IMG/VR virus record: IMGVR_UViG_3300020040_000010
Location: 1 to 6,373 of that record
DNA length: 6,373 nt
Direction: 5' to 3' (one strand)
DNA from: a virus
Made by a program: the position numbers and the translations under genes. Of this stretch, positions 510 to 6,373 are shown in pieces (position 1 is the stretch's first letter; each line of letters opens with the position of its first letter). Under the pieces are notes generated by a model that was given only the letters and a program-made list of their open reading frames with translations, was not told where the DNA came from and did no database searches.

Positions 510-953
510 ATGAGAAATTTTGCTTATAAAAATCCTGATTATATTAAAAATGAGGTTATTCCCGAATTGGTTGAAGAACATCCGTGTTATCAACAGTCTG
601 TTTATGATTCAGTTATGTACGATGAATCTCCTGATGGTGATTTGATCCAAGTTGATATGACCCAGATTTTATTAAATCAAGAAAAATATCGTCGTTTGCT
701 TGGTGATATGAATGTTCAGAATATTCTTGCCCAGATGCATCCTACTCAATCTACTGCTATGGATGATATGTCTGATGAAGAACGTTTTAATTGTGTTATC
801 TCTCGTCATTGTCAGACTATGTCAGAACGCCAGGCTGTTCTCGAACGATTAGCTAGTGAGAAGTCTGAGCTTTCTAAGTATGCTGAAACTATGTTGGCAG
901 AGCAAAAGTCAGAGCCCGCTTCTGCGTCCGCCCCTGACGCTGTTGCTCAATGA
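510..953 (+). CDS. Hypothetical 147-aa acidic protein, possibly a VP3-like internal scaffolding protein. The track ORF opens at TTG 498 and the first ATG is at 510.
   Basis: The ORF has genome-typical NNT codon bias. It sits between VP1 and VP2, and its size matches the roughly 150-aa VP3 of gokushoviruses. Its TGA stop overlaps the next ATG (ATGA at 950-953). I saw no recognisable catalytic motif, so the product name is positional inference only. Confidence 0.6.
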   Translation: MRNFAYKNPDYIKNEVIPELVEEHPCYQQSVYDSVMYDESPDGDLIQVDMTQILLNQEKYRRLLGDMNVQNILAQMHPTQSTAMDDMSDEERFNCVISRHCQTMSERQAVLERLASEKSELSKYAETMLAEQKSEPASASAPDAVAQ

Positions 954-2065
954 GATTTTATGATATTGGAGAAAGCCCCTTAATGGGGCACTCCGAAAAG
1001 CATATTGCTCCGCTTGTACTTGGTGGTATTATTGCTGCCGGTGCTTCTCTTGCCGGTAATGCTATTGGTGCGTCGTCTCAGAATAAGGCTAATCAGACTA
1101 ACATTGATATTAATCGTGAGAATAATGCGTTTAATGCCCGGCAGGCTCAAATCCAACGTGATTGGCAGGAAAAGATGTGGGGAATGAATAATTCCTATAA
1201 TTCCCCCAACGCAATGATTTCTCGTGGTTTGAATCCATTTGTCCAAGGTTCTGGTGCCATGGCTGGTTCTAAATCTCCCGCCTCTGGTGGCGCTGCTGCT
1301 TCCGCTGCTCCTCCTCCTAGCGTTCAGGCCTTCCGTCCTGATTTTTCTGACGTTGGTTCTGCATTGGCTTCTATGGCGCAGGCTCGTGCTTCTATGATTA
1401 ATGCTGAACAGAATGCTGCTCTTACTCCGTATAAGATTGAACAGATTCGTGGTGCTACTGATTATCGCAATATCGGTGTTGGTGCATCAGGTTACTGGAA
1501 TGCTTCTACTGGTAGACGCTCTGCGTTATTGGATCAGTCTAAGGAGTATCAGGAGCTTAAAAATATGGAATTTGCCGGTCGTCTTACGTCTGCTCAAGAA
1601 TCTCAGATTTTGCTCGATTCTGAAGCTCAACAGGTATTGAATAAATATCTTGATGAACAACAACAGGCTGATTTGTTTATTAAAGGCCAGACTCTGGCTA
1701 ATTTATATGCCCAAGGTGCTCTTTCTGAGGCTCAATATAAAAATCAGATGGCTCAAGCTGTTAAGACTTCCGCTGAAACGAACGGTATTCGTATTAATAA
1801 TAAGATTGCCGAACAGACTGCTGATTCATTGATTTATGCTAATATTCAGGCTAATCGTGCTCGTGGTTTATCTTCTCTATGGGATTCGAAGAATATTAAT
1901 GTTCTTAAGGATATTGAATATTCTAAGGATAAAGCCTTACGTGATTATTATAAATGGTCTGCTAAGGAAAAACAGAAAGATGTTAATTCTTATGAGTTGC
2001 GTAATGCTGTTGATTATGGCTCTCGTATTTTTCAAGGAATTGGTAATTCTGTTGGTCGTAAATAA
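950..2065 (+). CDS. VP2: Minor capsid / DNA pilot protein VP2 (H-like), 371 aa. An alternative in-frame start lies at ATG 983.
   Basis: There is an N-terminal hydrophobic helix (IAPLVLGGIIAAGASLAGNAIGA) and a Gly/Ala/Ser/Pro low-complexity linker (GSGAMAGSKSPASGGAAASAAPPPS). These are followed by a long Q/A/K/E-rich, helix-prone C-terminal half. This architecture and the position after VP1 are typical of microvirus pilot proteins. Confidence 0.75.
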   Translation: MRFYDIGESPLMGHSEKHIAPLVLGGIIAAGASLAGNAIGASSQNKANQTNIDINRENNAFNARQAQIQRDWQEKMWGMNNSYNSPNAMISRGLNPFVQGSGAMAGSKSPASGGAAASAAPPPSVQAFRPDFSDVGSALASMAQARASMINAEQNAALTPYKIEQIRGATDYRNIGVGASGYWNASTGRRSALLDQSKEYQELKNMEFAGRLTSAQESQILLDSEAQQVLNKYLDEQQQADLFIKGQTLANLYAQGALSEAQYKNQMAQAVKTSAETNGIRINNKIAEQTADSLIYANIQANRARGLSSLWDSKNINVLKDIEYSKDKALRDYYKWSAKEKQKDVNSYELRNAVDYGSRIFQGIGNSVGRK

Positions 2066-2077
2066 ATATTCTATTCG

Positions 2078-2111
2078 TTTGTCTTATATATTTACCTATT
2101 ATCTATTTTTG
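2078..2111 (+). promoter_or_regulatory. Candidate Bacteroidetes-type promoter: -33 TTTG at 2078-2081 and -7 TAttTTTG at 2104-2111. It would transcribe into the structured GC-rich core.
   Basis: The -7 box matches the TAnnTTTG consensus exactly. The spacer is 22 nt, slightly longer than I recall as typical. It lies in an AT-rich region where chance matches are plausible. Confidence 0.25.
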
Positions 2112-2183
2112 TTATAAATATTTGATTTTGCGAAATATTTTGACTCTCGGTAGTAAAATAATATTACGTATACATTCTTCAGG

Positions 2184-2460
2184 ACTAGAAGCCCATCACG
2201 GCGTTTGAGTGATATACACCTGCCGCCCGCATAGGGCCTGATCGAAAAACGGAGCGGAGCGACTTCTTTATAGAAGCGTTCCGCTTCGGTATTTTAGCAC
2301 GGAGTGCGCAAAGGCAGGTTCTATCTGACCTGCCGTGCCTATACACCTTTGTTTACATTTACTTGTTAATTAAGCGAAGCCCCTAGTTGTGTGCGAAGCA
2401 AATTCGAGTTATCCTCTCGAATTCTCCTCTTTCTTGTCTATAAACGCACAACTCACACTC
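2184..2460 (+). other. Structured non-coding element in the VP2 to lysis-module intergenic region. It may be a complementary-strand origin, a structured ncRNA or a recombination site.
   Basis: There is no ORF of 60 aa or more on either strand, and no ATG on + between 2191 and 2340. My hand count gives 83/150 G+C for 2191-2340 against 13/60 for 2101-2160. At least six hairpins and five short direct repeats are present (coordinates are in the findings). Confidence 0.55.
2250..2296 (+). terminator. Candidate intrinsic terminator: a 16-bp imperfect hairpin (2250-2288) followed by GTATTTTA.
   Basis: 2250-2261 pairs with 2277-2288 (12 bp, including two G-T pairs), A2262 is bulged, and 2263-2266 pairs with 2273-2276 around the loop TTTATA. 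The downstream T-tract is only 4 T, so this may equally be a purely structural hairpin. Confidence 0.3.
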
Positions 2461-2490
2461 TATGGTAGAATCTAAAAAAAAGAGATTTCT

Positions 2491-2521
2491 TTTGGAATTA
2501 TAAAAATAGTTTGTATATTTG
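2491..2521 (+). promoter_or_regulatory. Candidate Bacteroidetes-type promoter: -33 TTTG at 2491-2494, a 19-nt spacer and -7 TAtaTTTG at 2514-2521. It sits upstream of the 2573 ORF, the lysis module and VP4.
   Basis: Both boxes match the published Bacteroides sigma-AB consensus (TTTG / TAnnTTTG) exactly. The site lies about 50 nt upstream of the first ATG after the long non-coding region. Confidence 0.4.
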
Positions 2522-2572
2522 CCCCCAGTTAGAAGTTACAACTGTTATTAACATTTTAAAATTATTACAATT

Positions 2573-2767
2573 ATGCAGAAATTTATTATTTCAGTTAAAG
2601 AAAAGATTACAGGTCGTGATGTTATTTCGCCTTATGTTGTCAATTCTCTCGATGGTCTTGGACATTATTCTGAACGAGTTTCTCCGTTGGGTCTTGTTGT
2701 TATTGTGGATTCGATTAAGGAAGAAGATAATTTTATTGAACCTAAACCTCAAGGCAATGAAGAGTAA
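2573..2767 (+). CDS. Hypothetical 64-aa acidic protein (orphan).
   Basis: The ATG sits in the shared AATTATG context and position 3 is T-rich. This is the first ORF after the candidate promoter, and it overlaps the next ORF by 11 nt. I recognised no motif. Confidence 0.55.
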   Translation: MQKFIISVKEKITGRDVISPYVVNSLDGLGHYSERVSPLGLVVIVDSIKEEDNFIEPKPQGNEE

Positions 2768-2840
2768 TAATATTTGGAAAATTATAATTGGCGCTGTTTC
2801 TGCCGCTCTTGGTTACATTCTTAATGCTATTGGATTATGA
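2757..2840 (+). CDS. 27-aa single-transmembrane peptide MKSNNIWKIIIGAVSAALGYILNAIGL, a holin-like or lysis-accessory candidate.
   Basis: It has an ATG start, and its TGA stop overlaps the peptidase ATG (ATGA at 2837-2840). It is the only open frame covering 2768-2836. Its codons follow the genome NNT bias. A polar N-terminus is followed by a 19-residue hydrophobic stretch. It forms the tail of the supplied 2511..2840 ORF. Confidence 0.45.
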   Translation: MKSNNIWKIIIGAVSAALGYILNAIGL

Positions 2841-3145
2841 TTTGTATTCTTATTCATTTTTTGGAGTATTTATTGTTTTTTAATGTCCATTTTACGGTAA
2901 CTAGCGCTCGTCGTACCCCGGAACAGAATAAAGCTTGTAATGGTTCTCCTAATTCGCAACATCTTATTGGAGAAGCTATTGACCTAAAGCCTTATGGTTC
3001 TACTACTTATAATCAGTTGCTTGAATTTATCCATAGATATTCGGATAATATTCATGTATTTGATCAGTTGATATTGTATCCTACATTCATTCACATTTCA
3101 TTTGGTGCTCGTAATCGTCGTCAAGTGATTGATAAACGTAAGTAA
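2837..3145 (+). CDS. Zinc peptidase of the M15 family (Peptidase_M15_3 / VanY-like cell-wall peptidase), a putative endolysin of 102 aa.
   Basis: The motif TSARRTPEQNKACNGSPNSQHLIGEAIDL matches the family signature S-x-R-x(3)-N...G-x(3)-S-x-H-x(2)-G-x-A-x-D, with H42 and D49 forming H-x6-D. The third ligand candidate is H86, in YPTFIHISF. Confidence 0.8.
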   Translation: MICILIHFLEYLLFFNVHFTVTSARRTPEQNKACNGSPNSQHLIGEAIDLKPYGSTTYNQLLEFIHRYSDNIHVFDQLILYPTFIHISFGARNRRQVIDKRK

Positions 3146-3160
3146 TTATAAGTAATTATG
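3141..3160 (+). repeat. Tandem 10-mer AGTAATTATA AGTAATTATG. It spans the peptidase stop codon and the VP4 start codon.
   Basis: Read directly from the sequence. The second unit recurs exactly at 11-20 (= 6263-6272), inside VP1. Confidence 0.9.
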
Positions 3161-4978
3161 AAATATTCTCCTGATTTGCTTAGGGCTGTTGATCATTGTC
3201 AGCATCGTTCATTTATTACGAACAGGTACACTGGTGCCCGTATTGCCGTAGATTGTGGTCAATGCGATTATTGTATCCATAAGCGTGCTAAAAAAGCGTC
3301 TATGCGTGTGAAGACCGCAGGAAGTGCTTTTAAGTATTCTTATTTTGTGACTTTAACGTATGATAATGAACATGTACCCCTATTTAATTGTGAGGTTCTA
3401 GATAGTGCTTATGATGATGCCTTAGGTATCTCAGGAGATCTCCATTTTGGTTATGAAGAACATTCGTTTATTCCGGTATCCGAATATAGTTGCTCAGATC
3501 CAAGTCAATTGCGTCATATTTTCTTTACACAAGTACAGGGTACGGTTCCTTATAACCGTACCTCGTCTCAGTATGAAGCGGTTAAAGATAATTGGTTTCT
3601 TAGTATGGATGCTATCCGCTCCTTTATTAATAAGACGCAAACCTCTTCACCTTACGGTAAAGATGGACTCCTCTCTGATCGATACGGTGATAACCTTATC
3701 CCTTTTTTGAATTATGTTGATGTCCAGAATTATATTAAACGTTTACGTAAACATTTGTTTCAAAAATTAGGCTCTTATGAGACGCTACATTTCTACGCTG
3801 TGGGTGAGTACGGACCCGTACATTTCCGCCCGCATTATCATCTCTTATTATTCACAAACTCGGAGAAGGTCTCCGAGGTTTTACGATACTGTCACGATAA
3901 GAGTTGGAAACTCGGTCGTTCAGATTTCCAACGTTCCGCTGGTGGAGCTTCTTCGTACGTTGCGAGTTACGTTAATAGCCTTAGCGCTGCTCCCCTCTTA
4001 TATCGCTCATGCCGCTCATTTAGACCCAAGTCGCGAGCGTCTGTCGGATTCTTTGAAAAAGGCTGCGATTTCGTGGAAGACGAAGACCCTTATGCGCAAA
4101 TTGAGCAAAAAATCGATTCAGTCGTTAACGGAAGAGTCTATAATTTCAATGGCATCAGTGTTCGGTCAACTCCACCCATGTCGTATATCCGTACCTTATT
4201 GCCCCGATTCTCGTCTGCTCGCAATGACGATGTTGCTGCGATTGCTCGAATTCTTCTTGCTGTGCACCGAACGCCGCAGAGAATTGCAAGATTCGGAATT
4301 ATCCGCTACAAAGATTCGGTCTTGAGTCTTGTTCGTGCTTATTATCAATATCTTAAAGTTCAAAGTATCCTTACAGATGATGATAAAATTATATTACATG
4401 CTTCTAGGTGTCTTACTAGGTTCTGCAACAGTTCTAGTGATGTCGATATTGAATCTTATGTTAATAAGTTATATCGGTTGTTCCTATATGTCTCTAAGTT
4501 CTTCCGTAATTGGCATTTACCTTCCTTTGGTTCTGATGTTAGTGCTTACTCCGGTCGTATTATGTTTATTATTAAAACAGGTATAGAATATGAGAAAAAA
4601 TCGGATTATGTACGAATGTGTGATTCGTTGCGAATACAGCAGACTTTGTCAGCCCCCATGTTTCGGTATTTCTATTTACCAGCCGAAGGATGCGAAATGG
4701 CAACCATTGGTATCGGTGAGGATGGAGAATATGCAGACGGATTTATTCGTCCCGTTAAAGAGCAAATACGAGTACCGTTTGATGACCCCAGAATCCCACC
4801 TCTCGCGACTTGTAATTACTTCAAATGGGCTAAACCCGATACAAGAAGTTCCTATGATAGTGGGCAAAGTAGCGACTTACAGAAATGTCTTGATTTCCGT
4901 GCTGCCACCTTCTGCCGTGACATGATTAAGCATAAGAAATTGAATGATTCTAATAATATATTTAACCGTATGGTTTAA
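3158..4978 (+). CDS. VP4: Replication initiation protein VP4 (phiX174 A-like HUH rolling-circle endonuclease), 606 aa.
   Basis: It carries RCR motif I FVTLTY (aa 63-68, nt 3344-3361) and the HUH motif PHYHLLLF (H226-Y227-H228, nt 3833-3841). The two-tyrosine motif is YVASYVN (Y267 and Y271, nt 3956-3970), which compares with YVAKYVNK in phiX174 A. An N-terminal CGQCDYCIHKR Cys cluster is typical of microvirus VP4. Confidence 0.93.
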   Translation: MKYSPDLLRAVDHCQHRSFITNRYTGARIAVDCGQCDYCIHKRAKKASMRVKTAGSAFKYSYFVTLTYDNEHVPLFNCEVLDSAYDDALGISGDLHFGYEEHSFIPVSEYSCSDPSQLRHIFFTQVQGTVPYNRTSSQYEAVKDNWFLSMDAIRSFINKTQTSSPYGKDGLLSDRYGDNLIPFLNYVDVQNYIKRLRKHLFQKLGSYETLHFYAVGEYGPVHFRPHYHLLLFTNSEKVSEVLRYCHDKSWKLGRSDFQRSAGGASSYVASYVNSLSAAPLLYRSCRSFRPKSRASVGFFEKGCDFVEDEDPYAQIEQKIDSVVNGRVYNFNGISVRSTPPMSYIRTLLPRFSSARNDDVAAIARILLAVHRTPQRIARFGIIRYKDSVLSLVRAYYQYLKVQSILTDDDKIILHASRCLTRFCNSSSDVDIESYVNKLYRLFLYVSKFFRNWHLPSFGSDVSAYSGRIMFIIKTGIEYEKKSDYVRMCDSLRIQQTLSAPMFRYFYLPAEGCEMATIGIGEDGEYADGFIRPVKEQIRVPFDDPRIPPLATCNYFKWAKPDTRSSYDSGQSSDLQKCLDFRAATFCRDMIKHKKLNDSNNIFNRMV

Positions 4979-4994
4979 CTTTAATTAATTAATT

Positions 4995-6373
4995 ATGAGT
5001 AATTTTAATCCTTTGGATAGAGCGAAAATTCCTACCCATCGCTCTTCCTTCGACTTGTCTAGTAAAAAATTGTTTACAGCTAAAGTTGGAGAAATTTTAC
5101 CTTGCTATTGGCAGATTGGTATTCCCGGTAACAAGTATCGTATTTCCTCTGACTGGTTTACCCGTACTGTTCCGGTACATACCGCTGCTTACACCCGTAT
5201 TAAGGAGTATTACGATTTCTACGCTGTGCCGTTACGTCTGATTTCTCGTGCGCTTCCGCAAGCGTTTACTCAGATGACGGACTACATGACTAGCGCTGCT
5301 AGTTCTACTTCGAACGCTACTGCGCTTTCTTCTGTTCCTAATGTTACTCAGAGCTTGTTTAATACTTTTTTTCAGGCGGCTAATTCTCAAGATCAGACTA
5401 ATGTTCGTGATGACGCAGGTCTCCCTATTGTTTATGGTTCTTGTAAGTTGCTTGATCTGCTTGGTTATGGTTCTATGATTGCATCTTCCAATACTGGTAA
5501 GGCTGCTATTACTAAGAAGTATTTAGGTGTTGATAACCTTAGTGATACTGATAATCCTCTGGTTTACCAAACTTCACAAACTGTCAATATTTTGCCTCTG
5601 CTTGCATATCAGAAAATCTATTATGATTTTTATAGTAATTCTCAATGGGAAAAGCATAAAGCCTTCGCTTATAATGTAGACTATTGGCCTGGTACTGGTA
5701 TTGTTCCATTGGTTGCGGATATGGTTCGGCTGCGTTACGCTAATTACCCTAAGGATTATTTTATGGGAATGCTTCCCTCTTCTCAATATGGTTCGGTAGC
5801 TGTTTTGCCTGCGATTGATAGTTCTCTTCTTTCTTCTCAAGTTGGTTTATTCCCCTCACTTAGTTCTACCGTTGTTGGTTCGTCTGTTCAGAATCCTGTT
5901 GGTGGTAGTTCTATTATTTCTTCATCTTCTAATTCTTCCTCTGACCCTCGTTTTGTTCGTCTTAATTCCGACCTCTCTGCCCTCTCGCTTCGTGCTACTG
6001 AATACCTTCAGCGTTGGAAAGAAGTAGTTCAGTTCTCTAGTAAAGATTATTCAGACCAGATGGCTGCGCAGTTTGGTATTAAAGCTCCCGAATATATGGG
6101 AAACCATGCTCATTATATTGGAGGCTGGTCTAGTGTTATTAATATTAATGAAGTCGTTAATACTAATCTTGATACTGATTCTTCTCAGGCTTCTATTGCT
6201 GGTAAGGGTATAAGTTCTAATTCTGGACATACTGTTACTTATGATTGTGGTGCTGAACATCAAGTAATTATGTGTGTTTATCATGCTGTGCCTATGCTGG
6301 ATTGGAATTTAACAGGTCAGGCTCCTCAATTGACCGTGACTGCTATCTCTGACTTCCCCCAACCTGCTTTTGA
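4995..6373 (+). CDS. VP1: Major capsid protein VP1 (F-like), N-terminal 459 codons. It runs off the window end and wraps to 1..497. The full gene is 4995..6252 plus 1..497, giving 584 aa.
   Basis: I translated it by hand and found no in-frame stop: MSNFNPLDRAKIPTHRSSFDLSSKKLFTAKVGEILPCYWQIGIPGNKYRISSDWFTRTVPVHTAAYTRIKEYYDFYAVPLRLI... Later stretches read LLAYQKIYYDFYSN, RYANYPKDYFMGMLPSSQYG and LSLRATEYLQRWKEVVQFS. These match conserved Microviridae VP1 blocks. The ORF is missing from the supplied track because it has no stop in the window. Confidence 0.93.
   Translation, partial: MSNFNPLDRAKIPTHRSSFDLSSKKLFTAKVGEILPCYWQIGIPGNKYRISSDWFTRTVPVHTAAYTRIKEYYDFYAVPLRLISRALPQAFTQMTDYMTSAASSTSNATALSSVPNVTQSLFNTFFQAANSQDQTNVRDDAGLPIVYGSCKLLDLLGYGSMIASSNTGKAAITKKYLGVDNLSDTDNPLVYQTSQTVNILPLLAYQKIYYDFYSNSQWEKHKAFAYNVDYWPGTGIVPLVADMVRLRYANYPKDYFMGMLPSSQYGSVAVLPAIDSSLLSSQVGLFPSLSSTVVGSSVQNPVGGSSIISSSSNSSSDPRFVRLNSDLSALSLRATEYLQRWKEVVQFSSKDYSDQMAAQFGIKAPEYMGNHAHYIGGWSSVININEVVNTNLDTDSSQASIAGKGISSNSGHTVTYDCGAEHQVIMCVYHAVPMLDWNLTGQAPQLTVTAISDFPQPAF
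6253..6373. repeat. Terminal redundancy, right copy (identical to 1..121).
   Basis: Same comparison as for 1..121. Confidence 0.97.

Follow-up and report, generated by a model that had tools for sequence, protein, structure and literature searches.

A conserved 27-residue membrane peptide coupled to a trimmed M15 peptidase, a candidate lysis determinant of Alpavirinae-like gut microviruses

Phages with tiny single-stranded (ss) DNA or ssRNA genomes lyse their hosts, as a working rule, through a single non-enzymatic gene, and the single-gene lysis proteins (Sgls) that such genes encode are defined by the absence of an accompanying muralytic enzyme (PMC10614894). Peptidases of the M15 family have been known in kind in microviruses since 2012, when Roux et al. 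reported M15_3 genes in 11 human-associated Microviridae, six of them Alpavirinae, with an adjacent 'unknown ORF' (open reading frame) in 5 of the 11, and argued for horizontal acquisition and an endolysin role (PMC3394797). Such genes also occur in marine roseophages of the Occultatumvirinae, some subgroups of which lack them (PMC11499846), and in phiHBP1, the first cultured microvirus of Bacteroides (B. fragilis; PMC13064476). How a signal-less enzyme would reach the cell wall has so far gone without explanation in these viruses, and our literature searches found no described microvirus holin, transmembrane (TM) lysis partner or membrane partner for M15. Here, we analyse IMG/VR virus record IMGVR_UViG_3300020040_000010 over a stretch of 6,373 nucleotides (nt), referred to as a whole as the window, in which an M15 peptidase gene overlaps the gene for a 27-residue single-pass membrane peptide.

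We find that this peptide is the best candidate for the means by which this group of Alpavirinae-like phages lyses its hosts. As far as our searches show, neither the conserved peptide nor its coupling to, and independence from, the enzyme has been described before; GenBank relatives of the window already label the M15 gene 'peptidase'. In the reading that we favour, with some reserve, the peptide is a minimal holin or an L-type lysis peptide and the peptidase an add-on endolysin. A reading of the window made from its letters and reading frames (the sequence-only reading) had proposed a two-component lysis cassette here. It placed both genes correctly (2757–2840 and 2837–3145), with the right translations and the shared ATGA at 2837–2840, and its mention of earlier M15-like genes in Microviridae agrees with the work of Roux et al. 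(PMC3394797).

A short membrane peptide under purifying selection

The peptide gene spans 84 nt with its stop and encodes MKSNNIWKIIIGAVSAALGYILNAIGL. Its plan is simple: a polar, Lys-containing N-terminus (MKSNNIWK) is followed by a 19-residue hydrophobic tail, I9–L27, that runs to the C-terminus. The tail has a Kyte–Doolittle value of 2.03, in keeping with the membrane character assigned to it in the sequence-only reading, and a simple summed apparent ΔG of +1.3 kcal/mol; both scores are within the range of pinholin S21 TMD2 and TisB computed with the same script. The C-terminus lies inside the hydrophobic segment (...NAIGL-COOH), all variants stop 0–3 residues after it, and the charged hydrophilic C-terminal tail of holins is not present. 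Searches with the peptide gave no Pfam hit and best PHROG E-values of 0.33 and 0.4, with no holin, toxin or Sgl family among the matches.

The peptide is encoded by a genuine protein-coding gene under purifying selection that is stronger than that on the peptidase. All 82 relatives whose sequence extends upstream have its ORF, and 78 distinct nucleotide versions occur among them. Entropy per column averages 0.26, 0.09 and 0.74 at first, second and third codon positions (15, 6 and 26 variable columns of 27), and over 99 distinct genomes the ratio of nonsynonymous to synonymous divergence (dN/dS) is 0.10 for the peptide and 0.20 for the peptidase. The two genes are joined by a −1 overlap, ATGA, which is kept in 168 of 170 peptidase-bearing loci, the peptidase starting with ATG in 167 of the 170 and with GTG in 3. 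The sequence-only reading had named two computational outcomes that would count against it, a lack of peptidase homology and a 27-residue ORF that is not conserved, or is interrupted, in peptidase-bearing relatives; neither was observed. The conserved overlap would also suit a translated leader, in which the 27 codons deliver ribosomes to the peptidase start and the peptide itself is irrelevant. We consider this highly improbable, as the amino-acid sequence is under selection, with second positions nearly invariant, and the ORF is equally constrained in genomes that have no peptidase to regulate.

Within the membrane segment, G12, A13, S15–G19, Y20 and L22 are near-invariant. On a helix, G12, S15, G19, N23 and G26 fall inside an arc of 80 degrees (shuffle p = 0.002).

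The gene has mostly been missed. ORFs of such length are below the usual size limits of gene callers, and 10 of the 11 related GenBank records inspected that contain this one leave it unannotated, the remaining record calling it a 'hypothetical protein'. Two records, PP511396 (Dulem virus 226) and PP511322 (Dulem virus 243), extend the peptidase coding sequence wrongly by 21 codons in the 5′ direction over the peptide gene (1138–1512 in both, our loci L003 and L004, respectively), in a frame that is poorly conserved.

Retention of the peptide without the peptidase

A scan of IMG/VR with the peptide core pattern, which is a sample, gave at least 102 microvirus loci. Among the matches listed, 93 have the peptidase and nine have none anywhere in the genome (contigs L135, L167, L172, L181, L188, L191, L203, L212 and L218). 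In these nine the peptide evolves with a dN/dS of 0.11 at a synonymous divergence (dS) of 0.73. Because they keep the peptide equally constrained, the peptide is the core component of the locus and the peptidase an accessory. The proposed two-component cassette therefore stands as a coupled and conserved pair, but not as a strict one.

At the junction of the peptidase-less genomes, a shared spacer of about 55 nt, rich in T, separates the peptide stop from the ATG of the replication initiator (Rep) gene, and seven of the nine carry a linked peptide allele, ...LSAIGV. We considered that the nine might form a single clade; they are scattered among peptidase-bearing genomes both in the Rep tree and in the module tree, yet share one common junction allele. 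This combination points to recombination of a deletion allele, not to a simple lineage, and the peptidase looks to be polymorphic through recombination, present in some genomes and absent from others.

The persistence of the peptide on its own would also suit a different view, that it is a type-I Sgl, a 'protein antibiotic' whose TM helix binds and inhibits a membrane protein needed for lipid II supply (MraY, MurJ or similar) in the manner of phiX174 E or the Sgls of phages M and PP7. The peptidase would then be dispensable and act after the envelope has failed. Near-invariant TM residues, kept in genomes with Rep proteins about 30% different, fit a fixed protein target, and Microviridae are expected to lyse by a single gene, with MraY and MurJ as the targets of the known membrane type-I Sgls (PMC10614894). 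The peptide resembles neither E nor any other Sgl family, however, and this view leaves unexplained why a cytoplasmic muralytic enzyme is coupled to it in about 90% of the listed genomes, across deep divergence; the small and polar residues along one side of the helix may just as well reflect self-association. We regard a type-I Sgl as rather unlikely.

Diverged versions in distant microviruses

The peptide is still present where the peptidase has diverged to 48–57% identity. The versions in mar56 (MKRNWIKILIGAVSAALGYVLNSLGL) and mar62 (MKAETKSKLWAAIISALVSLLSNLANIL) both keep the overlap with the peptidase gene, and that of Bajarodmic viruses 410 and 1134 and Dulem viruses 236 and 257 (MKSETKSKIWSAIIAAAVSLLTSIAQIFS) is separated from M15 by 3 nt. 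Bajarodmic virus 1034 has a 31-residue homologue (MSTKNKTFETILRVIIAVASALAGAFGYSQF) 25 nt 5′ of a full-length, 162-residue M15 protein, and in mar57 a TM ORF of 30 residues overlaps the 3′ end of the M15 gene. All versions share a common plan of 26–31 residues, in which a polar head rich in Lys precedes 17–20 hydrophobic residues that reach the C-terminus; in the diverged type, Ser, Thr and Gln likewise lie on one helical face (p = 0.01).

Distant peptidase-less gut microviruses carry other small proteins in this part of the genome. These have 58–67 residues, one TM segment and a lipobox-like Cys (...VQSC/VQAC/LVSC...), and are encoded 5′ of Rep in Dulem viruses 263, 245 and 232 and chicken microvirus mg7_7 (loci L240–L243; L240 4657–4848, L241 4177–4374, L243 4379–4582 and L242 4540–4716). 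The ORF is directly 5′ of Rep in L240, L242 and L243, and one small ORF further 5′ in L241. They are further candidate exit proteins.

A peptide that is a core gene, independent of the peptidase and encoded just 5′ of Rep in all genomes, and that no homology links to lysis, could instead be a membrane protein with another role: superinfection exclusion, an anchor for replication or assembly, or a modulator of burst size like phiX174 K. The peptidase would then be independent of it or non-lytic. We find this unlikely. The examined region between VP2 and Rep holds no other lysis candidate, and small TM ORFs adjoin M15 despite a different gene order (after Rep in mar57, and in Bajarodmic virus 1034). 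The small TM and lipobox proteins that take this place in distant peptidase-less relatives fit a replaceable exit function, and a peptidase without an export signal can act only once the membrane is breached.

A trimmed, signal-less M15 peptidase

The 102-residue enzyme matches PF08291 (Peptidase_M15_3; MEROPS M15, LAS clan) with 33.2 bits, above the curated gathering threshold of 23.2 (E = 5.9e-8), aligned over profile positions 41–107 of 108; PF08291 is also the precomputed Pfam domain of all 120 relatives listed. It matches PHROG 894, 'endolysin', at 9.5e-16. A profile search against the PDB reached 1lbu at 2.8e-11, with H42 aligned to H154 and D49 to D161, which we take to be zinc ligands of 1LBU; the profile was needed, a direct sequence search of the PDB giving spurious hits only. 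An AlphaFold model has a mean predicted local distance difference test (pLDDT) score of 96.8 and a predicted template-modelling (pTM) score of 0.87, and its top PDB matches in Foldseek are 1LBU, VanY, EndoT5, RB49, ShhN (the hedgehog N-domain) and LysB4, the best of them at a modest E-value (1.3e-3 for 1LBU; probability 1.00, template-modelling score 0.56). These results bear out the M15 zinc peptidase of the sequence-only reading, which had named H42, D49 and H86 and expected PF08291 or PF02557: PF08291 was found, and a LAS fold resembling the phage L-alanoyl-D-glutamate peptidases EndoT5, RB49 and LysB4.

The zinc triad, H42-x6-D49 and H86, is invariant in alignments of 18 and of 42 sequences. 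Across the 42 diverse homologues S23, R26, N31, S40, G45 and A47 are also invariant, and D76, Q77 and R94 nearly so. The core looks catalytically intact, retaining the residues that bind metal and substrate. The third motif reads H86-I-S88, which had been taken for an oddity that might alter catalysis. It is instead the rule of a subfamily marked by H-x-S and by FDQ ten residues upstream of it, which includes cellular and prophage homologues of 130–150 residues and the 'endolysins' of the double-stranded (ds) DNA phages Salva (Stenotrophomonas), Suba (Xanthomonas), Myduc (Proteus) and BS-TP3 (Bacteroides).

An exhaustive search of clustered proteins returned 650 relatives of the peptidase at E ≤ 0.001. 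Beyond the close microviral relatives, non-fragment homologues mostly have 130–150 residues, and the Peptidase_M15_3 domain is incomplete in the microviral protein, which lacks about 35 N-terminal residues of typical members. The microviral enzyme is, by these alignments, a conserved, N-terminally trimmed core, since the longer homologues align with it from about their residue 50. Two ways of restoring the missing part were considered. An earlier start, as in the records of Dulem viruses 226 and 243, would use a poorly conserved frame that is stopped in the window, at 2765–2770 and 2819–2821. The small ORF64 that precedes the peptide gene might have been the N-terminal half of a split peptidase; it bears no resemblance to one, and ORF64-like genes precede a full-length M15 gene in phiHBP1 and persist in peptidase-less genomes.

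By hydropathy and by the AlphaFold model, the enzyme has no signal peptide or membrane segment, and it would therefore be made in the cytoplasm. A signal-anchor-release (SAR)-like or membrane-tethering element had been suggested for its N-terminus. In the model, residues 3–14 form a helix and residues 19–23 a strand of the core, with pLDDT of at least 95, and the family consensus there, MNxxLMHFLEYLLYSN, is not TM-like (best 19-mer Kyte–Doolittle value 1.04), which speaks against the suggestion.

Cellular homologues are mostly from Bacteroidales, with 33–48% identity over matches longer than about 35 residues (32–58% for the best segment), and sit in prophage lysis cassettes beside TM and lipobox proteins. 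A scan of genome contigs with the alignment of close relatives found cellular homologues only, and no integrated prophage of this clade. In a prophage of Dysgonomonas sp. 520 (L092 3696–3815), a 39-residue TM ORF (...NILIIGAAVAAYFLFIKKK) ends 3 nt before a full-length M15 gene; lying in the lysis cassette of a dsDNA prophage, the two may be the cellular-side counterpart of the peptide–peptidase pair.

A chain of three overlapping genes

Peptide and peptidase are the second and third genes of a chain. The chain is recognised as one because successive stops and starts overlap: the stop of ORF64, a gene also kept in peptidase-less genomes, overlaps the start of the peptide gene. ORF64 matched no Pfam or PHROG family. 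Its dN/dS is 0.30 over the 99 distinct genomes. Synonymous divergence is unusually low (dS 0.35 compared with 0.7–1.0 for the neighbouring genes) and the signal of period 3 is weak, which may reflect some further constraint on the DNA or RNA itself, or an overprinted frame.

Upstream of ORF64 lies a promoter-like site of the form TTTG-N19-TAnnTTTG (TTTG at about 2491, TAnnTTTG at 2514–2521). Of 111 distinct relatives, 71 have an exact TAnnTTTG between −57 and −61 relative to the ORF64 ATG, and those listed without it have a close variant in the same position. The motif itself is not enriched in the window (3 matches compared with 6.8 expected by chance), and the evidence for a promoter is the position and conservation of the site. 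The site agrees with the Bacteroides promoter consensus, reportedly described by Bayley, Rocha and Smith in 2000.

An overprinted frame raises the question of whether the 27 residues are the last helix of a longer product, a class I holin-like protein of about 73–126 residues with three TM segments that overlaps ORF64. The peptide frame is indeed open for about 70 codons in the 5′ direction, and 125 of 128 distinct genomes keep 50 codons or more of it open; the low dS and weak periodicity of ORF64 would fit, as would the dN/dS of the alternative frame, 0.79, where the corresponding frame of the peptidase gene gives 1.05. However, +1 frames are open for 60–184 codons genome-wide, as 55% of ORF64 third positions are T, and the most variable sites of the overlap are second positions of the alternative frame. 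Relatives differ in where the upstream start codons lie and in which codons are used, Dulem virus 257 has the frame closed a short way 5′, and the ATG at 2757 is conserved as a start, with GTG instead in two genomes. A longer product is, in our judgement, very unlikely.

Open +1 frames are present in every gene of the window and read as Leu/Ile/Phe-rich, 'membrane-like' protein. They likely stem from T-rich third codon positions, with ORF64 as the sole gene measured, and in such genomes they are a source of false TM-ORF calls.

Genome organization and host

The window holds a complete circular microvirus genome: bases 1–121 are an exact direct repeat of 6253–6373, giving a true length of 6252 nt. 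Its features are collected in Table 1. The capsid protein VP1 is 25.5% identical to that of Parabacteroides phage YZ-2015a (E = 3e-26) and 36–38% identical to that of B. fragilis phage phiHBP1, with which Rep shares 32% identity. By this likeness of capsid and Rep, and without a formal subfamily phylogeny, we class the virus as an Alpavirinae-like, Bacteroidales-associated microvirus; its capsid relatives do not support the gokushovirus framing of the sequence-only reading. A Bacteroidales host is most likely, because the capsid resembles those of YZ-2015a and phiHBP1 and a Bacteroides-type promoter-like site is conserved.

Table 1. Features of the window, with positions in its own numbering
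Feature	Position	Strand	Remarks
VP1	4995 across junction to 497		584 aa
ORF of 151 aa	498–953		
VP2 pilot protein	950–2065		
Region without convincing ORF	2066–2572		about 500 nt
Bacteroides-type promoter-like site	2491–2521	+	TTTG, about 19 nt, then TATATTTG; about 50 nt 5′ of ORF64
ORF64, small acidic protein	2573–2767	+	First gene of the chain; kept in all close relatives
27-aa single-pass membrane peptide gene	2757–2840	+	Predicted; candidate holin-like or Sgl-like effector
ATGA overlap, peptidase start and peptide stop	2837–2840	+	
102-aa signal-less minimal M15 (Peptidase_M15_3, LAS) zinc peptidase	2837–3145	+	Pfam, PHROG, AlphaFold, Foldseek
Replication initiator (VP4, Rep)	3158–4978	+	Pfam PF23343 2.6e-14; PHROG 942 1.4e-33; 3′ neighbour of the cassette

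The region between VP2 and ORF64 contains two hairpins, at 2273–2287 and 2401–2423, which are two of the three terminator-like hairpins found in the window (0.9 expected). Part of 2389–2475 is nearly unchanged in relatives L181 and L224, with a diverged version in L001, and a GTG-initiated mini-ORF, MCEANSSYPLEFS...INAQLTLYGRI, is found again in L181 and L224. The region could serve as a replication origin or in regulation, or contain a mini-gene. An Rfam scan of the window gave zero matches, and sigma-70 promoter-like sites were near chance (7 compared with 4.9 expected).

The G+C content of the cassette region, 2401–3200, is 31–33%, and that of most 400-nt windows elsewhere 39–48%; it is also low at 401–800 and 1601–2000 (33–35%). 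Low G+C around the cassette is weakly consistent with an acquired accessory module.

A proposed mode of host exit

If the peptide is a minimal holin or L-type lysis peptide, the promoter-like site and the three overlapping genes would together form the host-exit module of this Alpavirinae-like gut microvirus. The peptide would insert into the cytoplasmic membrane N-in/C-out, as the positive-inside rule predicts, and self-associate through the small-residue face of its helix; on reaching a critical level it would permeabilise or depolarise the membrane and so act as the primary lytic trigger. That it persists without the enzyme is why we consider it probably the primary effector. In peptidase-less genomes, its lesion together with host autolysins may suffice for lysis. 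Where the peptidase is present, the 11.8 kDa enzyme would reach the murein through the lesion and speed or complete lysis. It would have been acquired from dsDNA phages of the same hosts.

Several points weigh against this scheme. The peptide has no match among holin, toxin or Sgl families and lacks the charged C-terminal tail of canonical holins. Small pores formed by a 27-residue helix are not obviously passable for a folded enzyme, and pinholins act only with pre-exported SAR endolysins, whereas this peptidase has no SAR domain. The extreme conservation of specific TM residues is unusual for holins and fits binding to a host membrane protein at least equally well. On the side of the enzyme, about 35 N-terminal residues are absent, and that it is active is an assumption drawn from its conservation. 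The genome has no evident spanin-like gene to act on the outer membrane, and the peptide is retained without the peptidase, so that the pair is not obligatory.

More tentatively, the peptide alone may be a complete lysis effector, which would place the clade between single-gene and holin–endolysin lysis. It would then be the smallest phage lysis protein known, a core peptide onto which a trimmed endolysin was bolted, to be gained and lost repeatedly by recombination, and its invariant small-residue face would represent a minimal pore of a new type, or else a new membrane target for drugs in Bacteroidales.

The peptide offers a concrete candidate for the standing question of how microviruses outside the phiX174 group leave their hosts, and for the membrane component missing from accounts of microviral M15, in well over a hundred gut microvirus genomes. 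The culturable B. fragilis microvirus makes the idea of lysis directly testable (PMC13064476). Should the peptide prove lytic on Bacteroidales, its 27 residues would be relevant to phage-derived antimicrobials, and they are relevant also to the annotation of small genes.

Comparison with known systems

The closest described counterparts are the microviral M15 genes, which belong to the same Pfam family and the same kind of virus, have been proposed as horizontally acquired endolysins and are absent from some relatives. Reports on them cover the enzyme and no membrane partner, and the enzyme of the window is a shortened form of 102 residues. The phiHBP1 enzyme shares the FDQ...H-x-S motifs of the subfamily; its gene, for 134 residues, follows Rep and has no convincing small TM ORF adjoining it.

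As an enzyme, the peptidase resembles both the zinc D-Ala-D-Ala peptidase of Streptomyces albus G (1LBU) and the phage L-alanoyl-D-glutamate peptidases (EndoT5 2MXZ, RB49, LysB4 and Ply500) in its LAS fold and in the zinc site made by H-x6-D and a distal His. It differs from all of them in sequence, with 17–27% identity, and in being a bare 102-residue core that has neither the N-terminal part of the domain nor a wall-binding module.

With the Sgls (phiX174 E, the phage M Sgl and MS2 L) the peptide shares a tiny genome, a short membrane-directed sequence with a basic N-terminus and a hydrophobic domain, and, in peptidase-less genomes, an apparent ability to stand alone. A length of this order is not without precedent: pore formation by a C-terminal fragment of MS2 L, 25 residues long, is reported in the title of a study by Goessens et al. 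cited in PMC10614894. Unlike the Sgls, it is mostly coupled to an enzyme, is encoded by a free-standing gene and not inside an essential one, and has no sequence similarity to them.

The holin–endolysin cassettes of dsDNA phages differ from this locus in several respects. Characterised holins have about 60–220 residues, far more than 27, and the peptide has one TM segment, no hydrophilic C-terminal tail and no match to a holin family. The window shows no dual-start or antiholin arrangement and no spanin gene, and it is the membrane component, not the enzyme, that forms the conserved core and occurs alone in some genomes. The likeness lies in the architecture: as in those cassettes, the gene for a small membrane protein is placed 5′ of, and overlaps, the gene for a signal-less muralytic enzyme. 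The TM helix of the peptide has a face of small residues suited to oligomerisation, as does the glycine-zipper TMD2 of pinholin S21 68, and peptidases homologous to the enzyme of the window are found in holin–endolysin-type cassettes of Bacteroidales prophages.

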